Positions 2,839 to 25,230 of a stretch of 58,510 bases of DNA are shown in pieces; within the stretch, counting starts at the first letter, position 1, and each line of letters opens with the position of its first letter. The stretch spans positions 1-58,510 of the forward strand of contig JANPLU010000036.1 in the NCBI GenBank assembly GCA_031422435.1, read 5' to 3'. Below the pieces are notes generated by a model. The model did no database searches, was not told the DNA's origin, and saw only the letters and a list, made by a program, of their open reading frames with translations. The stretch comes from Acaryochloridaceae cyanobacterium VAR_48_metabat_390 (GTDB taxonomy: Bacteria > Cyanobacteriota > Cyanobacteriia > Thermosynechococcales > Thermosynechococcaceae). The position numbers and the translations under genes are program-made.

Positions 2839-2947
2839 GCTATGAGGCTAGCCTAATTCCGATTAAACTATGTAAAGTCAATTGCTACTTCAAAAAGATT
2901 GACCCACGAAATTGCATTTTGTTACTAGAGCTTGAGCTGCTTAAATT

Positions 2948-3388
2948 ATGGACATCGCACGGTACTTAGCTAATTATAAAAAACTGAGCGTTGGAAGCCC
3001 AGAGTACAACGATTTCATGAGCAAGCTAGAGTCATTAGGAATAGTCGGAATCCCGCTGCCCACACAAAAAATGCCTAGGTTTACCCCCAAAAACTATACC
3101 GCTCAATTTGTTGAAGAACGACATGAGGAGCTAGGAGAAGACGTTCTGAAGGCGTACTTGGCGATCGCCATTCAGAACCTAATCCTCAATCGTAAAGTTG
3201 AACAGCCCCAGTTTGAAGTGGTCGAGGGTTCCATCGTTGAGGAATACCTCAAAACCCTCGAAAGTGAGTTTGACCCTATTGACGATAAAACCTTAAGAAA
3301 GCTCTATATTGAACTAACCAGAAAACCTAGAAAATCCAATGACAACGAAGAAGACGATATTTCTACCTCAGCATCTTTGAGCAAGTAG
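2948..3388 (+). CDS. Hypothetical protein (146 aa)
   Basis: Open frame filling the intergenic space; no recognised motif. Confidence 0.6.
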   Translation: MDIARYLANYKKLSVGSPEYNDFMSKLESLGIVGIPLPTQKMPRFTPKNYTAQFVEERHEELGEDVLKAYLAIAIQNLILNRKVEQPQFEVVEGSIVEEYLKTLESEFDPIDDKTLRKLYIELTRKPRKSNDNEEDDISTSASLSK

Positions 3389-3441
3389 AAATACCGTCTT
3401 GTAGAATTCACCCTAAAGTTGTAGGTGATTGGTCGCTAATT

Positions 3442-4791
3442 TCAGCGACCAATTCCCACATACAAAAATCCAGCCTGCTCTAGCTGGGCTTTATCAAGGA
3501 AATTACGCGCATCTATCATCACCGGATGCTCCATGCGCTGGGCTAACATTACGTAGTCAAGGGACAGAAACTGCGACCATTCTGTCACCAAAACAAGCGC
3601 ATCACAGCCATCCGCCAGATGGCCTGCATCCATCTCTACAATGAGATTCGATAAGCCTTGTCCCACGCCATTTTGAGCGACCAGCGGGTCGTAGGCTTTC
3701 ACCCTTGCCCCTAGTCTGGTGAGCTGCTCCACCAAGGTAAGCGCTGGCGCATCTCGCATGTCGTCTGTGTCGGGCTTGAAGGTTAAACCCAGTAACCCAA
3801 TGGTTTTGCCCTTCAGCACCTTCAGCGTTTTCTGAAGTTTTTCAATCACTACCATCCGCTGATGCTCATTGACGCTAACCGCTGCCTTCAGCAACTCAGC
3901 CGTATACCCATAATCCGAAGCGGTATGAATTAATGCCGAAACGTCTTTCGGGAAGCAAGACCCTCCCCAGCCAATGCCCGCATTTAAAAACTTAGTGCCG
4001 ATGCGAGAATCTAAGCCGATGCCTTTGGCAACTTCGACGACATTTGCCCCCACGCGATCGCAGATATTGGCAACCTCATTAATAAAGCTAATCTTGGTTG
4101 CCAAAAATGCATTAGAGGCATACTTCACCATTTCTGCTGAGCTGAGGTCTGTTACCACAACGGGGACAGGCGGAAGCGCCTGATCCTCAGCATACTTGCG
4201 CTCTACAATAGGTGCATAAAGCATCTGCATCATTTCAACGGCTCTAGATGCGTTGCTGCCGAGCACAATTCGGTCTGGGTTAAACGTATCGTAAACCGCC
4301 GAACCCTCCCGCAAAAATTCAGGGTTGCTCACTACGTCAAAATGAGCATCAGTTGCTGCCATAGACTGCTCTATAACGCCGTCTAAAACCAACATTCGCA
4401 CCCAGTCGCCAGAGCCGATTGGCACCGTTGACTTATTTACAATCACCTTATAGTCAGAAGTAAGATGATTACCGATGCCACGAGCAACCGCCTCTACATA
4501 GCGGGTGTCGCTTTCTCCATTAGGCAGTGCAGGAGTGCCGACTGCAATAAATAAGATCTCACCGTGGGCAACCCCTGTCGCCAAATCCGTCGTAAATTGA
4601 ATCGTCTGATTTTGAATAGCGGCCTGTAAAACCTCAGGTAGTCCTGGCTCATAAATGGGAGACTGCCCCTGCTGCATCAGCTTAACTTTCTCTTCGTTAT
4701 TGTCTACACAAATAACAGAATGACCAATATGAGCCAAAGACGCACCCGTCACTAAGCCGACATATCCCGTTCCAATTACACATACTTTCAT
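3442..4791 (-). CDS. ugd: UDP-glucose 6-dehydrogenase
   Basis: GTGYVG Rossmann motif, NPEFLREG, GGSCFPKD. Confidence 0.95.
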   Translation of the reverse strand: MKVCVIGTGYVGLVTGASLAHIGHSVICVDNNEEKVKLMQQGQSPIYEPGLPEVLQAAIQNQTIQFTTDLATGVAHGEILFIAVGTPALPNGESDTRYVEAVARGIGNHLTSDYKVIVNKSTVPIGSGDWVRMLVLDGVIEQSMAATDAHFDVVSNPEFLREGSAVYDTFNPDRIVLGSNASRAVEMMQMLYAPIVERKYAEDQALPPVPVVVTDLSSAEMVKYASNAFLATKISFINEVANICDRVGANVVEVAKGIGLDSRIGTKFLNAGIGWGGSCFPKDVSALIHTASDYGYTAELLKAAVSVNEHQRMVVIEKLQKTLKVLKGKTIGLLGLTFKPDTDDMRDAPALTLVEQLTRLGARVKAYDPLVAQNGVGQGLSNLIVEMDAGHLADGCDALVLVTEWSQFLSLDYVMLAQRMEHPVMIDARNFLDKAQLEQAGFLYVGIGR

Positions 4792-19795: not shown

Positions 19796-21001
19796 ATGAA
19801 TGAATCTCATGAACTGCACAGCAGTACGCAGCACCCGTCACCTCGCTATTCTCTGGGACAGCTCATTCTGTATTTTTTGAAGTTGGGCAGTTGGGGTTTT
19901 GGCGGTCCAGTTGCCCTAATTGGCTATATGCACCGTGACCTCGTTGAAGAACACCATTGGATTACGGAAGCCGAATATCAAGAAGGGCTAGCGTTAGCGC
20001 AACTGGCACCAGGGCCATTAGCCGCTCAGTTAGCGATCTACCTGGGCTATGTTCATTACCGAACTGTGGGCGCTACATTGGTTGGGCTGGCTTTTGTGTT
20101 GCCGTCTTTTGTCATGGTGGTCGCTTTGGGCTGGGCTTATGTCCGTTATGGCGGCTTAACCTGGATGCAGTCTGTGTTTTATGCCGTGGGAGCCAGCGTG
20201 ATTGGGATTATTGCCCTCAGCTCCTACAAGCTTACGCAAAAAACCTTGGGCAAAGACTGGCTGCTCTGGCTGATTTATTTGGTTGTTGTGGCTGTTACCG
20301 TCATTACGGAGGCTGAACAAATTGTACTGGTGTTGGCGGCGGGTGTTTTAGTGTGGCTGGTGAAATCACCCCCCAAACAGTGGTTTCAACACAACAGGCT
20401 ATCGAGTTTTGTGGGGGTTCCGCTTCTGCCGCTGGTGGGGTTAGCGCAAGCGGCAAACCCTAACGTTTTATGGAATATCTTTACCTTCTTTGGGACCGCT
20501 GGAGCTTTTGTGTTTGGCAGTGGCCTAGCGATTGTGCCGTTCCTTTACGGTGGGGTTGTCAAAGGGTACCAATGGCTTAATCCGCAGCAGTTTTTAGATG
20601 CGGTTGCAGTTGCAATGATTACGCCAGGGCCTGTGGTCATCACGACTGGGTTTATTGGCTATCTGGTGGCAGGGTTGCCTGGGGCGGTGGTGGCGGCGAT
20701 CGCCACGTTTCTCCCTTGCTATCTCATTACGGTCTTGTGTGCCCCGTACTTCCATAAATATGGCAAACTTCCTGGCATTGCGGCTTTTGTAAATGGGGTT
20801 ACGGTGGCGGCTGTGGGTGCCATTACAGGGTCTGTCATTGTTTTGGGGCGACGGTCATTGGTGGATATACCGACCGTGGCGATCGCCTTAATCACGCTAG
20901 CCCTACTGTGGAAATTTGGCAAAAAGTTACCAGAGCCTTTGGTAGTTTTAGTGGCTGCGATCGTGGGGTTGATTGTGTACCCTCTCACCCATCAATCCTA
21001 G
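19796..21001 (+). CDS. chrA: Chromate transporter, long-chain CHR family
   Basis: GFGGP, AQLAPGP, FGSG and AMITPGP duplicated CHR motifs. Confidence 0.93.
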   Translation: MNESHELHSSTQHPSPRYSLGQLILYFLKLGSWGFGGPVALIGYMHRDLVEEHHWITEAEYQEGLALAQLAPGPLAAQLAIYLGYVHYRTVGATLVGLAFVLPSFVMVVALGWAYVRYGGLTWMQSVFYAVGASVIGIIALSSYKLTQKTLGKDWLLWLIYLVVVAVTVITEAEQIVLVLAAGVLVWLVKSPPKQWFQHNRLSSFVGVPLLPLVGLAQAANPNVLWNIFTFFGTAGAFVFGSGLAIVPFLYGGVVKGYQWLNPQQFLDAVAVAMITPGPVVITTGFIGYLVAGLPGAVVAAIATFLPCYLITVLCAPYFHKYGKLPGIAAFVNGVTVAAVGAITGSVIVLGRRSLVDIPTVAIALITLALLWKFGKKLPEPLVVLVAAIVGLIVYPLTHQS

Positions 21002-21112
21002 AATAGATAGAACTCCATACGAAATAAAAAAGAGATATTGCCGTGCCCGAACTGCCCGAAGTTGAGACGGTTCGCCTTGGACTCAATGAGGCGACCTGCG
21101 GGATGGTGATCG
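20999..21112 (+). repeat. Left copy of a 114-bp direct repeat (mutM leader plus first ~23 codons)
   Basis: Ungapped alignment to 24326-24439 (offset 3327); 9 mismatches counted by hand. Confidence 0.95.
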
Positions 21113-21117
21113 GCTAA
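21043..21117 (+). pseudogene. mutM: Truncated mutM 5' fragment (MPELPEVETVRLGLNEATCGMVIG*)
   Basis: GTG start, N-terminal peptide matches the intact mutM for 21 residues, stop at 21115-21117. Confidence 0.9.
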
Positions 21118-21124
21118 ACAGAAT

Positions 21125-21547
21125 TCAGTCAAATGGATTGACGATTCTGAGGGTGGTGTTGATGCGTTGACCGTGATGCATGTCTTCTGAGTAAACGATG
21201 GAACAGTTATGCAGTAGGGCTGTTGCTAGAACGAGGCTGTCCCAATAGGAATAGCCGTATTTCTGCTTCACTTCCATTGCCTGCACAACATTGGCAGATT
21301 CAATGGGCAGAATTGGAAAGCTATTGATGAGCGAAGAGATAATGGCAACGGCATCTGTTTCAGATGTGAATTTTTTTCGCGTGAGGACGTGGAATAGCTC
21401 ACCCAGAACTTGAGTGCTGATTTGAATCGATTGAGGATGGGTTCTCAGAATTTCCTCGACGCGCTGATATTTTTCTAAGGGATCTTTGCTGTAGAGATAG
21501 ACCCAAAGGTTTGTATCCAACAAGACCTTATCGGTCATAGAGTTCAT
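21125..21547 (-). CDS. PIN-domain toxin (VapC-like)
   Basis: LLDTNLWVY, STQVLGE, YSYWDSLV and YSEDM acidic PIN motifs. Confidence 0.92.
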   Translation of the reverse strand: MNSMTDKVLLDTNLWVYLYSKDPLEKYQRVEEILRTHPQSIQISTQVLGELFHVLTRKKFTSETDAVAIISSLINSFPILPIESANVVQAMEVKQKYGYSYWDSLVLATALLHNCSIVYSEDMHHGQRINTTLRIVNPFD

Positions 21548-21770
21548 CTCGATTAAACGTGTAGTCTGTTGGGATTTTAAATGAATACTGCTGAACGGTC
21601 TCTAAAAACGCTTCAACTTTAGTTAGGGCGGCGGACGCTTCATCTATGCTTGGGCGATCTTCAGGCTCAAGGATAATAATTTGAAGGGTTTTTCCTTCTA
21701 AGTCAGAACTGAGTTGTCTATTTGGAATTAAGGTACCGTTAGAACAGGTGGCTTGTAGGGTGATAGACAT
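21528..21770 (-). CDS. Cognate antitoxin (VapB-like / DUF104-like)
   Basis: 80 aa, upstream of and overlapping the PIN gene; C-terminal FNRDELYDR. Confidence 0.8.
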   Translation of the reverse strand: MSITLQATCSNGTLIPNRQLSSDLEGKTLQIIILEPEDRPSIDEASAALTKVEAFLETVQQYSFKIPTDYTFNRDELYDR

Positions 21771-21935
21771 AGTTTGTTTGCCTCAACACTAGGCTTAAGA
21801 TCTTAGTGGCATAAGACTTAGGTGTGAGTCTAGTCTAATCCTTAAGCGTTTTTCTAGGCCAGTGGTTGGCTTTTTATCTCAAGGCTATTATTTCACTTGA
21901 ATACGCTTGAGTCGAGTTAGGATGCGATCCCACAG

Positions 21936-22142
21936 ATGATTATTGAGGTAAAACAGGTTGAACCGACGCTGCCGCTGGTCATTGTTACTTTGCCGCCAAC
22001 TCAAGATATGCCAGATTACAGGGAACTTTTAGTAAGCTACAGCAGAATGACGAAAACTTATCGAGATCTTGGGGCTATGGTTATTGATGAAAAGCAGGTT
22101 GAACCTCTATTTTATCAACAATTAGATGCGCTCAAAATCTAG
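21936..22142 (+). CDS. Small hypothetical protein or gene remnant (68 aa)
   Basis: ORF with an internal 10-aa repeat; no known motif. Confidence 0.4.
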   Translation: MIIEVKQVEPTLPLVIVTLPPTQDMPDYRELLVSYSRMTKTYRDLGAMVIDEKQVEPLFYQQLDALKI

Positions 22143-22249
22143 AGGAAAGCTTTGATTATAAGTACTACCCACTTCTCTTGAGTGTTACCTACTTCTCTCA
22201 AGGAAATTAGTATGTAAATTAATATTTTAGGAAATAACTTCAAGAGTAA

Positions 22250-23830
22250 TTATTTTATTGGATTCTTCTTTGCCCAAGATGCTATGGCACGCTCTAACTC
22301 ATCAAAATGACCATCTACTCCACGAATCCAGTGCTTATATTCATCACTTGGTAGGCAGGAAGCTGCGTAAATAAATGCACGACGAATCCATGTAGTCATT
22401 TCATGAAGATTTTGTTTCCGTTGACGAAACCAAAAGTCTTGCTTACTTCGCCCCATGGCTAGCATAATTTCTCGCCTTGAGAAGTCATCAAGTGCATCGT
22501 TATAAAGTTTGATGTACTGACTTTCTGAATTCCACTCTGCACTTAGTGTAAACGGTCTTAAAATATACATTCTAGAGTACTCTAAGTGTGAAGCAGTCGA
22601 GTCACTATCTTTATAAACATTGATCAGCAATTCACCAATCTCAGCCCTCTGCTCAGGAGGCAAAGAATTAAGCCTAAGAAGATAATTTATTGTTTCACGT
22701 ACTACTGGAACAAATTTATTAAAATTATCGAATATAAGATCAATAACTTCTTCAGCACCAATTTGTCCGAGCCTTACTAACAAGAATTTGAGTAAAGAAA
22801 GGTCTGGTTCTTCCTCCTCAATTTGTTCACGTAGTATGCCTTCAAGATTTAGTCCATCGATTGCTTGACGATTTTCCGGAGACAGAGTCTCATATTCAAT
22901 TGCCTCATATGTATCTTCAACTCCCATTTCACTAAGTAGATCGTAAAAGCGTTCTGATAAAGTCTCAAGCTCCCTTCTTTCATTTTCCTTAAGATAAATT
23001 GATCGAAAGACATTAATGGAGACAATTTTTGTCTTATTTTGCTGAAGAGTCAGCCCATGGTTTTCAATCAAGGAACGTGCTATGAGAGTCAGGTATTTAT
23101 AGGCTTCAGCTTCAGACTTACAAAAAATTCGGAAGTCATCAGAGTAGCGAACATATTTTGCATCCTCTGAAAGTAGAATCTGATCAATATCAGAAATTGT
23201 TACTTCTGCGATTAAACGTGAAGCTGCTGAGCCAACAGGAATGCCATAAGAATAAGAACCTGCCCAATGAGCAATTAAGTCTTTCAAAGCTTTTGCATGC
23301 ATATGGCCAATGCCCAATGCACTATCCAAAGCATTATCAATACGGTGCGTATATAGGCGTGGGAAAAAATCTGCAATATCAGCAATTACGACATGTGATA
23401 CCTGATTTGATTCACAAAAATTGTGTAAAGCCTGCTGAAAACTTCGATAAGTATATTTATCTGAAAACATTCGTCCTTCAGCATCTGGAGCAAATCGGTA
23501 CGAATGAACAATTTCTTCAGATACGGGAATCCTTGCTGCTTCTAGTTTTTCGCCGACTTCTCGTATAAGTGCTGTAAATACTAAAAAATCGAGTGGATCA
23601 AGCTGCGTAGAAATTCTAAACCCAAAACGATGCTTTGGAACTAGACAGCGCCTAAATGACCGGATTTTCCAATCTAAGATATCAGTGCTTTGAATCGAAG
23701 CTTTGACTTTGTCCCAGTCATCTGCAATCGCACGAAATTCGAAAATCTCAGGAAAGATATCTGTATCTCCCCATGACATAACGTGCTGCAAAGCCCAATC
23801 TAGAGATACATTTGTAAGTGTTAATGGCAT
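22250..23830 (-). CDS. Stand-alone reverse transcriptase, UG/Abi (defence-associated RT) type, with a predicted helical C-terminal domain
   Basis: RT motifs VPK..FGFR, IADIADFFPRLYTH, GIPVGSAASRLIAE, YVRYSDDFRIF (YSDD = aa 229-232) and GLTLQQNKT; no maturase/endonuclease, Cas1 or retron VTG motif seen. Confidence 0.9.
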   Translation of the reverse strand: MPLTLTNVSLDWALQHVMSWGDTDIFPEIFEFRAIADDWDKVKASIQSTDILDWKIRSFRRCLVPKHRFGFRISTQLDPLDFLVFTALIREVGEKLEAARIPVSEEIVHSYRFAPDAEGRMFSDKYTYRSFQQALHNFCESNQVSHVVIADIADFFPRLYTHRIDNALDSALGIGHMHAKALKDLIAHWAGSYSYGIPVGSAASRLIAEVTISDIDQILLSEDAKYVRYSDDFRIFCKSEAEAYKYLTLIARSLIENHGLTLQQNKTKIVSINVFRSIYLKENERRELETLSERFYDLLSEMGVEDTYEAIEYETLSPENRQAIDGLNLEGILREQIEEEEPDLSLLKFLLVRLGQIGAEEVIDLIFDNFNKFVPVVRETINYLLRLNSLPPEQRAEIGELLINVYKDSDSTASHLEYSRMYILRPFTLSAEWNSESQYIKLYNDALDDFSRREIMLAMGRSKQDFWFRQRKQNLHEMTTWIRRAFIYAASCLPSDEYKHWIRGVDGHFDELERAIASWAKKNPIK

Positions 23831-24119
23831 TATTTTGAATAACTTAATTTTTTAAATAAATTTTCAATCTAAAATCAGAAATAAATTAGTGCCCAAACGC
23901 GTAAAGTTTTGCTAGGTTAAATTATTAAGCTTATCTGACTGATTTGCAATAGTCCCAAATGAAAAAATAAATCAACACTTGTTATTCTTCTTGATTATTT
24001 TATTCTCCGTTCAGATAATATTTTGGTTATTACGATTTTGCCCCCAGCTCTCTGTAAAATAAATTGCTCAGATGTTCACGAGGGCTAATTCTACTCAAGG
24101 TTCTGGACAATGTGTAATC

Positions 24120-24331
24120 GTCGCCCTATCCCTAGCTCACCCCAAAAAACGTAGACCGCTGAAGTTATTGAGAGAGAGGCTGAAGAGAGTGATCGCCTGG
24201 GTAGGGGTAAGGCGATCCTTGGGGTGGGCTTTAAGACTGCGGTGATCTAGCTGAGATCATAGAGTTAATTGTGTATCCACTTACCTATGCATCGTGACTG
24301 AAGTAGATGGAGGTAGGATTCTAATTAGAAT
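24120..24331. ncRNA. Candidate structured RNA/DNA element upstream of the RT
   Basis: Nested inverted repeats 24134-45/24219-30, 24191-98/24210-17, 24243-59 and about 24275-24319. Confidence 0.3.
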
Positions 24332-24439
24332 GGATAAAACTGCATACGAAATGAAAAAGAGATATTGCCGTGCCCGAACTGCCTGAAGTTGAGACGGTTC
24401 GCCTTGGACTCAACGAGGCAACCTGTGGGATGGCGATCG
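24326..24439 (+). repeat. Right copy of the 114-bp direct repeat; forms the functional mutM start
   Basis: Matches 20999-21112; ends within HIP1 GCGATCGC at 24433-24440. Confidence 0.95.
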
Positions 24440-25230
24440 CAGATATTGAAGTATTGCTAACACGCACGATAGCCTATCCCTCAGTCGAACGGTTTCAGCA
24501 GGGGCTGCCAGGCGCACAGATTTCGACTTGGACTAGGCGCGGTAAGTATTTGCTGGCGCATCTAGTGCGACCTGGCTCAAATGCCGCTCAGCCAGCAGGG
24601 TGGTTGGGGGTACATCTACGAATGACGGGTCAGCTTTTGTGGTTAGTAGACGCTGTACCGCTGTCTAAACACACGCGTGTGCAGCTAAGGTTTGAGCAGC
24701 AGCAAGCGCTCAGGTTTGTAGACCAGCGCACCTTTGGGCAAATGTGGTGGATTCCCCCGCCAGAAGATCCCAATGTGATTATGGCTGGGATGGGGGCTTT
24801 AGGTGCAGAGCCATTGTCTGAGGCATTTACGTCTGCTTATTTAGCGACGGTGGTGAAAGGACGCGATCGCCCTATCAAAAATGCCCTTCTCGACCAAACC
24901 CTGATTGCAGGGCTAGGCAATATTTACGTGGATGAGTCTCTGTTTTTAGGCGGTATCCATCCGACCCGACCCTGCCGCAGCCTGACTGCTGAAGAAATTG
25001 AGCGGCTGCATGGGGCGATTGTCTCGGTGATTCAAAAGGCATTGAGTGAAGGCGGCACAACCTTTAGCGATTTCCGGCAGGTAACGGGCACTAACGGCAA
25101 CTACGGCAGCGTTGCCTGGGTGTACCGCCGTGCTGGGGAACCGTGTCGTGTGTGCGCCACACCCATTGAAAAAATTCGCATGGCGGGAAGATCCTGTCAT
25201 TTTTGTCCTAACTGTCAGCCGCAGTGTTAG
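24370..25230 (+). CDS. mutM: Formamidopyrimidine-DNA glycosylase
   Basis: MPELPEVE, RRGKYL, HLRMTG, GLGNIYVDE, C4 zinc finger. Confidence 0.97.
   Translation: MPELPEVETVRLGLNEATCGMAIADIEVLLTRTIAYPSVERFQQGLPGAQISTWTRRGKYLLAHLVRPGSNAAQPAGWLGVHLRMTGQLLWLVDAVPLSKHTRVQLRFEQQQALRFVDQRTFGQMWWIPPPEDPNVIMAGMGALGAEPLSEAFTSAYLATVVKGRDRPIKNALLDQTLIAGLGNIYVDESLFLGGIHPTRPCRSLTAEEIERLHGAIVSVIQKALSEGGTTFSDFRQVTGTNGNYGSVAWVYRRAGEPCRVCATPIEKIRMAGRSCHFCPNCQPQC

Follow-up and report, generated by a model that had tools for sequence, protein, structure and literature searches.

What kind of reverse transcriptase (RT) does a cyanobacterium keep as a lone gene in a small acquired islet, and could such an enzyme act in phage defense without a partner? 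The question is raised by an ORF in the window, i.e., the whole 58,510-nucleotide stretch of DNA from Acaryochloridaceae cyanobacterium VAR_48_metabat_390 that was analyzed. The original prediction, made from the sequence alone, viewed this ORF as an anti-phage RT of the UG/Abi type and did not assign its subclass.

An intact reverse transcriptase of the UG7 group

The features of the RT gene and its product are as follows.

22250..23830, minus strand: UG7 (DRT8-family) RT, stand-alone variant, 526 aa (PADLOC Drt8 match, AlphaFold2 model, UG7-labelled relatives, and tree)
Domain layout of this protein: RT domain, ~aa 1-280; linker/two-helix region, ~aa 283-325; alpha-helical repeat domain, to aa 526
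23135..23146, minus strand: YSDD catalytic motif, aa 229-232 (D231 and D232 invariant; the third catalytic Asp is D151)
22907..22909, minus strand: Tyr308, candidate protein-priming residue in the RT-to-helical loop (putative role, from conservation and the linker tyrosines of AbiA)

The 526-codon ORF contains zero internal stops and encodes the motifs IADIADFF at aa 149-156, GIPVG at aa 196-200, and YSDD at aa 229-232, with RVT_1 as the sole Pfam match (aa 132-271; 48.8 bits, with a cut-off of 29.6). Its GC content is 0.383, compared to 0.493 for the genome, and its GC3 is 0.275, compared to 0.54-0.55 for four flanking genes. Motif positions, the RVT_1 match, and GC content thus confirm the AT-rich ORF with intact RT motifs that had been described. 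The catalytic residues D151, D231, and D232 are present in all 108 divergent homologs examined. The sequence GIPVG, singled out earlier as a replacement for the canonical GxPQG, does lie at aa 196-200; it is no peculiarity of the window protein, since the whole family conserves G196, P198, and G200. Pairwise comparison gave dN values of 0.13-0.20 and dS values of 1.5-3.4 in five of seven pairs, with dS saturated in the other two; by these estimates, the gene is under purifying selection. The RT protein is intact and horizontally acquired.

Classification with PADLOC, which the original prediction had called for, gave a clear answer: the Drt8/UG7 model (PDLC03783) matched aa 5-523 with 539.9 bits, and the next family, UG21, reached 149.2 bits. 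All four relatives looked up in file S1 of Mestre et al. carry the UG7 label at 48-75% identity, i.e., WP_066343020 (cluster of P0023, 75%), WP_123599768 (72%), WP_024006787 (63%), and WP_005816130 (48%), and the first three share the subclade of the window protein in a FastTree phylogeny. With the best full-length match to the Drt8 profile, UG7-labelled relatives, a helical C terminus, and an intact YxDD motif, the window protein is a Class 1 UG/Abi RT of the UG7 group. UG7 was named DRT type 8 in 2022 by Mestre et al., who split it into a nuclease-linked variant of 150 members and a variant of 165 members without an associated gene (PMC9226505); a 2026 overview lists DRT8 without an established mechanism (PMC13213688). 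The earlier suggestion of a perhaps uncharacterized subclass therefore holds in part: the group already has a name, whereas the tested DRT8 is a two-gene form and the window protein represents the partner-less variant, of which it is a further member with no distinguishing feature found.

Other RT classes were set aside in the original prediction, and the profile searches agree, as the NCBIfam models for group II intron and retron RTs remained far below their cut-offs. The group II intron model TIGR04416 scored 62.4 bits (cut-off 300), with RVT_1 the only Pfam family and no maturase domain X, and the Retron St85 model scored 38.6 bits (cut-off 235), with no conserved neighbor beside the RT. 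Neither avd, template/variable repeats, nor cas1, as expected of RTs of diversity-generating retroelements (DGR) or CRISPR, were found; the ORFs of the islet are a PIN pair and a gene remnant, and the only long repeat in positions 20800-24700 is a duplication of mutM. The DRT4 (UG15) model NF041749 scored 75.1 bits (cut-off 450), and all NCBIfam models for DRT2-5 were far under cut-off for the window protein.

An AlphaFold2 model was built from a 75-sequence alignment (pLDDT 90.2, pTM 0.89), a single-sequence model with a pLDDT of 38 having been discarded. It places the RT domain up to about aa 280 and nothing other than helices past aa 272, with lower certainty near aa 283-290, in agreement with the claim that some 250 C-terminal residues are alpha-helical. 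Foldseek ranked DRT6 at the top (TM 0.65), followed by DRT4/UG15, AbiK, AbiA, and Abi-P2. By VIA-align, DRT6 (Z 22.1, 445 residues, rmsd 4.0) was the sole entry of the top 18 to cover nearly the whole chain, its Z being equal to those of group II intron and DGR RTs, whose matches extend over the RT part only. In the model, the whole-length fold is closest to those of DRT6, DRT4, and AbiK, and a helical-repeat domain takes the place of the thumb. The proposed architecture of a UG/Abi RT with a helical C-terminal domain is borne out by the Drt8 profile, the model, and these fold matches.

A modular islet between psaE and mutM

The islet and its borders comprise the following features.

20999..21112, plus strand: left direct repeat, with the mutM upstream region and codons 1-23; dead-end copy that stops after 24 codons
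21125..21547, minus strand: PIN-domain (VapC-like) toxin, islet cargo (Pfam PIN, 59.4 bits)
21528..21770, minus strand: probable antitoxin of 80 aa, overlapping the toxin start (from its position; no family above cut-off)
21898..22142, plus strand: 3' remnant of a longer gene, containing a 68-aa ORF (21936-22142); left-hand boundary of the RT module
24121..24258, no strand given: short genus-dispersed sequence found beside toxin-antitoxin (TA) pairs; right-hand boundary of the RT module
24250..24293, plus strand: chromate transporter gene, 3' end, in a degenerate copy (of 20954-20997; 75% over 44 nt, the frame resembling the transporter C terminus)
24326..24439, plus strand: right direct repeat, start of intact mutM (114 nt, 92% identical to the left copy)
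24370..25230, plus strand: mutM (fpg), intact host gene and right border (Pfam Fapy_DNA_glyco, H2TH, and zf-FPG_IleRS)

The islet measures 3.2 kb and lies between the two 92%-identical copies of the mutM 5' end, a direct repeat of 114 bp, and the copy of the chromate transporter 3' end that precedes intact mutM extends the duplication. No HIP1 octamer occurs in its 3,213 bp, where about 3.3 were predicted from the genomic density of 1.04 per kb (Poisson P of ~0.04), and no integrase is encoded inside it. The small defense-like islet of the original prediction is thus real and acquired, with its ends placed by the 114-bp repeat. A second copy of the chromate transporter 3' end was also seen in genome G003, some 2.6 kb away from the complete gene (L156:234-370 and 2922-4119); such copies suggest that insertions frequently come with a duplication of this end of the gene.

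What lies between psaE and mutM varies within the genus. The interval is short and empty in five genomes (G004, G005, G006, G021, and G053, three of which are of the same genus); it holds about 7 kb in G009 (C1:109350-116500, L149), including PIN and Gp49/HTH pairs, an HNH gene, and an ATPase with an HsdR-type domain; and in the window's genome (19364-24439), it holds the chromate transporter and the RT islet. For nine other genomes of the genus, no DNA match to the RT was among the matches listed, and no islet-less joint was among the contigs listed from four public runs (X1-X4), contigs being unable to prove absence. Run X1 may be where the window's DNA comes from, and X4 belongs to the study of X1.

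The islet itself is modular. A contig from run X3 tracks positions 21069-22124 at ~95% and departs before the RT, and a contig from run X4 tracks positions 21934-24144 at ~95% with other flanks, leaving at 21934 and at 24144-24198; because these contigs diverge at the module edges, the RT and the PIN pair are separable. The PIN toxin-antitoxin pair also occurs unaccompanied by the RT, in G011 and G059, and it is unlinked to the RT elsewhere, as no neighbor recurs among 62 homolog loci. The sequences at either edge of the RT module, 21898-22142 and 24121-24258, border other cargo in G009. These patterns fit a swapping of cargo through recombination at shared flanks.

Both edge sequences have counterparts in the genus. 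The left edge, 21898-22142, matches a decayed longer frame in G009 at 75%, and its 68-aa ORF, which has an internal 29-nt repeat, corresponds to the tail of this longer decayed gene, which lies upstream of htpG in G009 (L196:20-640). This ORF was considered as a partner of the RT and rejected, being a gene remnant with no Pfam family and Atlas matches to unnamed clusters only. The right edge, 24121-24258, belongs to a sequence of 70-140 bp (also at L153, L195, L196, and L197) found beside TA pairs in four of the nine other genus genomes, and it occurs twice around one PIN pair in G004; it may be either a flank shared for recombination or what remains of a gene.

The partner-less variant, its neighbors, and alternative roles

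The tested DRT8, the one UG7 system with demonstrated protection, is a nuclease-linked sequence, and its protection of E. coli against T5 needs the active sites of both the RT and the PD-(D/E)XK protein (PMC9226505). We found nuclease-linked UG7 loci on four plasmids (L190-L193), in which the RT gene is followed by an overlapping gene of 241-250 aa; the two partners that were scanned, those of L190 and L191, scored 238-243 bits on the PADLOC RTasPDDEXK model (PDLC03797). This model had no match in the window's genome, which is 99.99% complete, and none in ten other genomes with a lone UG7 RT. An HMM made from the four partner sequences detected nothing in the window's genome at E<=1 and, over 68 loci, matched its own four sources only, with absence carrying less weight on the many short contigs. 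When a conserved neighbor was sought in 278 neighboring ORFs from 62 loci, none was common to more than three loci, and most of the shared neighbors came from near-duplicate contigs. The RT stands alone, as had been claimed, and it is the only one of its kind in its genome.

The FastTree phylogeny (119 sequences, 520 columns, midpoint root, and no outgroup; built without ORFs of <470 aa, the 827-aa protein of L182, L193 as truncated, and alternate representatives) groups the 12 nuclease-family sequences in one clade with a support of 1.0, a partner having been seen for 3 of them and the other 9 placed by similarity, with the window protein deep in the remainder. Because no partner nuclease and no recurring neighbor were found and its position is outside the nuclease clade, the window protein belongs to the known stand-alone UG7 variant. 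It does not represent DRT8 as validated, a two-gene system, as the partner nuclease is absent. A literature search on DRT8/UG7 and Class 1 priming, with most subscription papers outside its reach, returned no mechanism study of DRT8 and no test of the lone variant; in the parts of PMC13174585 that it covered, neither DRT8 nor UG7 is mentioned.

We consider it fairly probable that this stand-alone UG7 RT-like polymerase is a single-gene anti-phage system, like AbiK, AbiA, DRT4, and DRT6. A trans effector was raised for the partner-less variant by Mestre et al. (PMC9226505); the RT would then be a sensor or signal-maker only, dependent on an unrelated host nuclease or, opportunistically, on the neighboring PIN toxin. 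The dependence of the tested DRT8 on its nuclease (PMC9226505) speaks for such an arrangement, as do the PIN toxin-antitoxin pair in the same islet, the TA pairs that flank L001, L009, and L010, and the finding of no effector site in the window protein. We nevertheless regard it as unlikely, given that homologs of the cognate nuclease are absent from the window's genome and ten other carriers, that neighbors do not recur among the 62 loci, that the PIN pair is found without the RT (G011, G059, and the X3 contig) and the RT module with other flanks (the X4 contig), and that the gene travels by itself between Cyanobacteria, Proteobacteria, and Bacillota.

More than 1,100 homologs were returned by our searches. 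In three sets of 401 genomes each, Drt8 matches occurred in 6 for the phylum, 2 for a proteobacterial class sample, and 5 for a sample of Bacillota, the center genome being counted in each case; the distribution is patchy, on acquired DNA. Three scans of viral contigs (P0001, alignment A3, and P0425) gave no confirmed relative, a search of the phage collection at E<=1e-15 was negative, and a fold search of viral proteins gave generic RT and RdRP matches only. Defense genes were scanned for in 101 neighboring ORFs from 26 homolog loci (100 of 129 listed, plus one), within ~3 kb. Three loci had complete systems (CBASS at L003, pAgo with CBASS at L072, and type I RM at L064), and L062 had partial matches; no clear defense system was seen within ~3 kb at the remaining 22 of the 26 loci, a count without a control set. 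UG7 has been reported to be defense-enriched (PMC9226505).

That most homolog loci lie outside recognizable defense islands would fit an active protein-primed polymerase with a non-defense role, e.g., in DNA repair, in stress response, or in excluding other mobile elements, and a DRT7-type protein has been tied to an oxidative-damage response (PMC12439943). This role appears improbable to us: patchy presence, foreign composition, and swapping at a TA-rich variable site fit defense cargo, and defense proteins make up the sister variant and have the most similar folds. The adjacency to mutM reflects the insertion site, because homologs are not located beside mutM. Finally, an RT that uses a noncoding RNA (ncRNA) template like DRT2, DRT9, and DRT10, encoded in the 495 nt of AT-rich noncoding DNA upstream, is very improbable even though other UG groups may have ncRNAs according to Mestre et al. 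(PMC9226505), since the architecture is that of Class 1, the upstream region ends in the genus-dispersed element and the chromate transporter remnant, blastn of the 500-nt upstream and 400-nt downstream flanks gave no match to those of 29 homolog loci (11 with proteins of 66-82% identity), and the two Rfam matches near the RT were both far below gathering scores, comparisons that are blind to RNA conserved in structure only. Counts of promoter-like sites (8, compared to 7.3 expected) and terminator-like sites (4, compared to 1.9 ± 1.5) were uninformative.

Several further observations were made at the homolog loci. Longer UG7 proteins, of 827 aa (L182:2437-4920, G607) and of 744 and 725 aa (P0255 and P0286), imply fused domains, which might be effectors. 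An 82%-identical homolog in Leptolyngbya BL-A-14 (L009:6853-7870) is broken by a transposase pair, and the homologs of L004 and L053 appear frameshifted. On two plasmids, of Aminobacter and Sphingobium, UG7 RTs adjoin a second RT gene (L188:669-6677 and L190:2785-6696), and at L188 and L183, a DUF87/HerA-like gene is located immediately upstream. An N-terminal integrase fragment precedes the homolog of L001 (L001:5191-5715), and flanks at L001, L053, L054, and L181 look attC-like by eye. Carriage as an integron cassette was not supported: a strict attC pattern was found in 0 of 40 loci, and a looser fold test was positive for 5 of 80 flanks, compared to 2.9% after shuffling, with none in the window.

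Candidate priming residue, proposed mode of action, and comparison with known systems

For the preferred reading of a single-gene system, how synthesis would start is the central question. The Class 1 RTs AbiK, AbiA, Abi-P2, DRT4, and DRT6 are reported to synthesize template-free single-stranded DNA (ssDNA) primed from a tyrosine of their own (PMC11077055, PMC12783706, and bioRxiv 2026.02.16.706125), and AbiA primes from Tyr298/303 in its RT-to-helical linker (PMC11077055). In the AlphaFold2 model of the window protein, Tyr308 sits in loop 302-317 of the linker region. The residue is found in 75 of 75 close homologs, in 97 of 108 divergent homologs (26-77% identity), and in all 32 nuclease-family sequences, these being closely related to one another. 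It is the most conserved tyrosine of the family (0.90, compared to 0.81 for the next and 0.67 for the YxDD tyrosine), and one of just two positions in aa 268-452 with at least 80% conservation. On the basis of this conservation and its location in the linker, we propose Tyr308 as the putative priming residue. Priming sites of relatives lie in four places, i.e., in the fingers of AbiK and Abi-P2, the palm of DRT4, the linker of AbiA, and the first helical module of DRT7 (PMC12783706 and bioRxiv 2026.02.16.706125), so position alone is no proof for Tyr308.

By analogy with these relatives, the most likely mode of action would be protein-primed, untemplated synthesis of ssDNA that triggers abortive infection. 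With no nucleic-acid template or primer, the enzyme would join the first nucleotide to its own Tyr308; it would probably oligomerize and make short, covalently bound ssDNA that is restrained by host exonucleases; and a phage ssDNA-binding or annealing protein, or higher dNTP pools, would let the product build up until the infected cell arrests or dies. Phage ssDNA-binding proteins, which protect the product, trigger DRT4 and DRT6 (PMC12783706).

The killing step is the least certain part of this mechanism. It would not proceed via the DRT8 nuclease because this partner is missing. We also considered an RNase of the DRT4 type, in which His160 and Asp192 form the dyad (bioRxiv 2026.10.21.760695 and 2026.10.27.754916). 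In a sequence alignment, DRT4 His160 aligns to H162 of the window protein and Asp192 to K183, where the commonest residues among the 108 stand-alone homologs are E (29), K (19), and M (12); as the dyad aspartate is not conserved in this alignment, such an RNase was rejected. A histidine at the place of H162 is common in RTs. Neither of the known effectors is thus present. In 31 of 32 nuclease-linked UG7 sequences, the K183 column does hold an aspartate, together with the histidine; the lone clade lacks it.

A bolder reading, which we offer tentatively and think rather doubtful as a whole, is that the partner-less UG7 clade is a self-sufficient system distinct from the tested DRT8: it would prime from Tyr308, use an invariant N-terminal D-T-D-x-F-P-x-x-F-E motif to pick nucleotides and thereby make sequence-biased or protein-templated DNA, and kill by a means other than the DRT8 nuclease or the DRT4 RNase; the form linked to a nuclease would be a lineage with an added effector. 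As a guess, E31 may correspond to the base-selecting D29 of DRT4, a position that precedes the start of the sequence alignment.

The window gene is largely ordinary, one more UG7 RT of a partner-less variant catalogued in 2022. Its value is that of a test case, as roughly half of the family lacks the nuclease on which the tested form depends and the window protein is intact, under purifying selection, and partner-free in a 99.99%-complete genome. Besides the catalytic mutant, Y308F would be a sharp mutant for how DNA synthesis starts, and if the RT protects alone, it would be a separate single-gene system, possibly with a new DNA product. Cyanobacteria are not discussed in the defining paper, the word occurring 0 times in its text as covered here (PMC9226505).

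We infer from these analogies that the window protein resembles AbiA, DRT4, and DRT6 in its mode of action and would have anti-phage activity and protein priming. DRT6 (UG12) and DRT4 (UG15) are, like it, single-gene Class 1 RTs and are its best whole-length structural matches, but they share only 13-17% identity with it, and protein-primed untemplated synthesis is the model proposed for them. DRT4 differs further in priming from the palm residue Tyr125 and in its RNase dyad His160/Asp192, whose aspartate is not conserved in the window protein. Lactococcus AbiA has its priming tyrosines 298/303 in the linker region that holds Tyr308 here, a likeness at the level of the region; AbiA, by contrast, has a C-terminal HEPN domain, it forms a dimer, and identity is 14-15%. 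DRT8, the UG7 RT with a PD-(D/E)XK nuclease, is of the same RT group, its representatives at L190 and L191 scoring 492-500 bits on the Drt8 HMM and keeping the tyrosine equivalent to Y308. It forms a separate clade (support 1.0), however, and differs at conserved positions (E31/D, K66/S, D81/W, and D154/S, with W481 not kept), whereas the window protein has no such nuclease beside it or in its genome. The closest known counterpart is the stand-alone UG7 variant of 165 members (PMC9226505), with which the window protein agrees in its HMM match, labelled relatives, place in the tree, lack of an associated gene, and make-up of an RT with helical repeats in ~520-530 aa.
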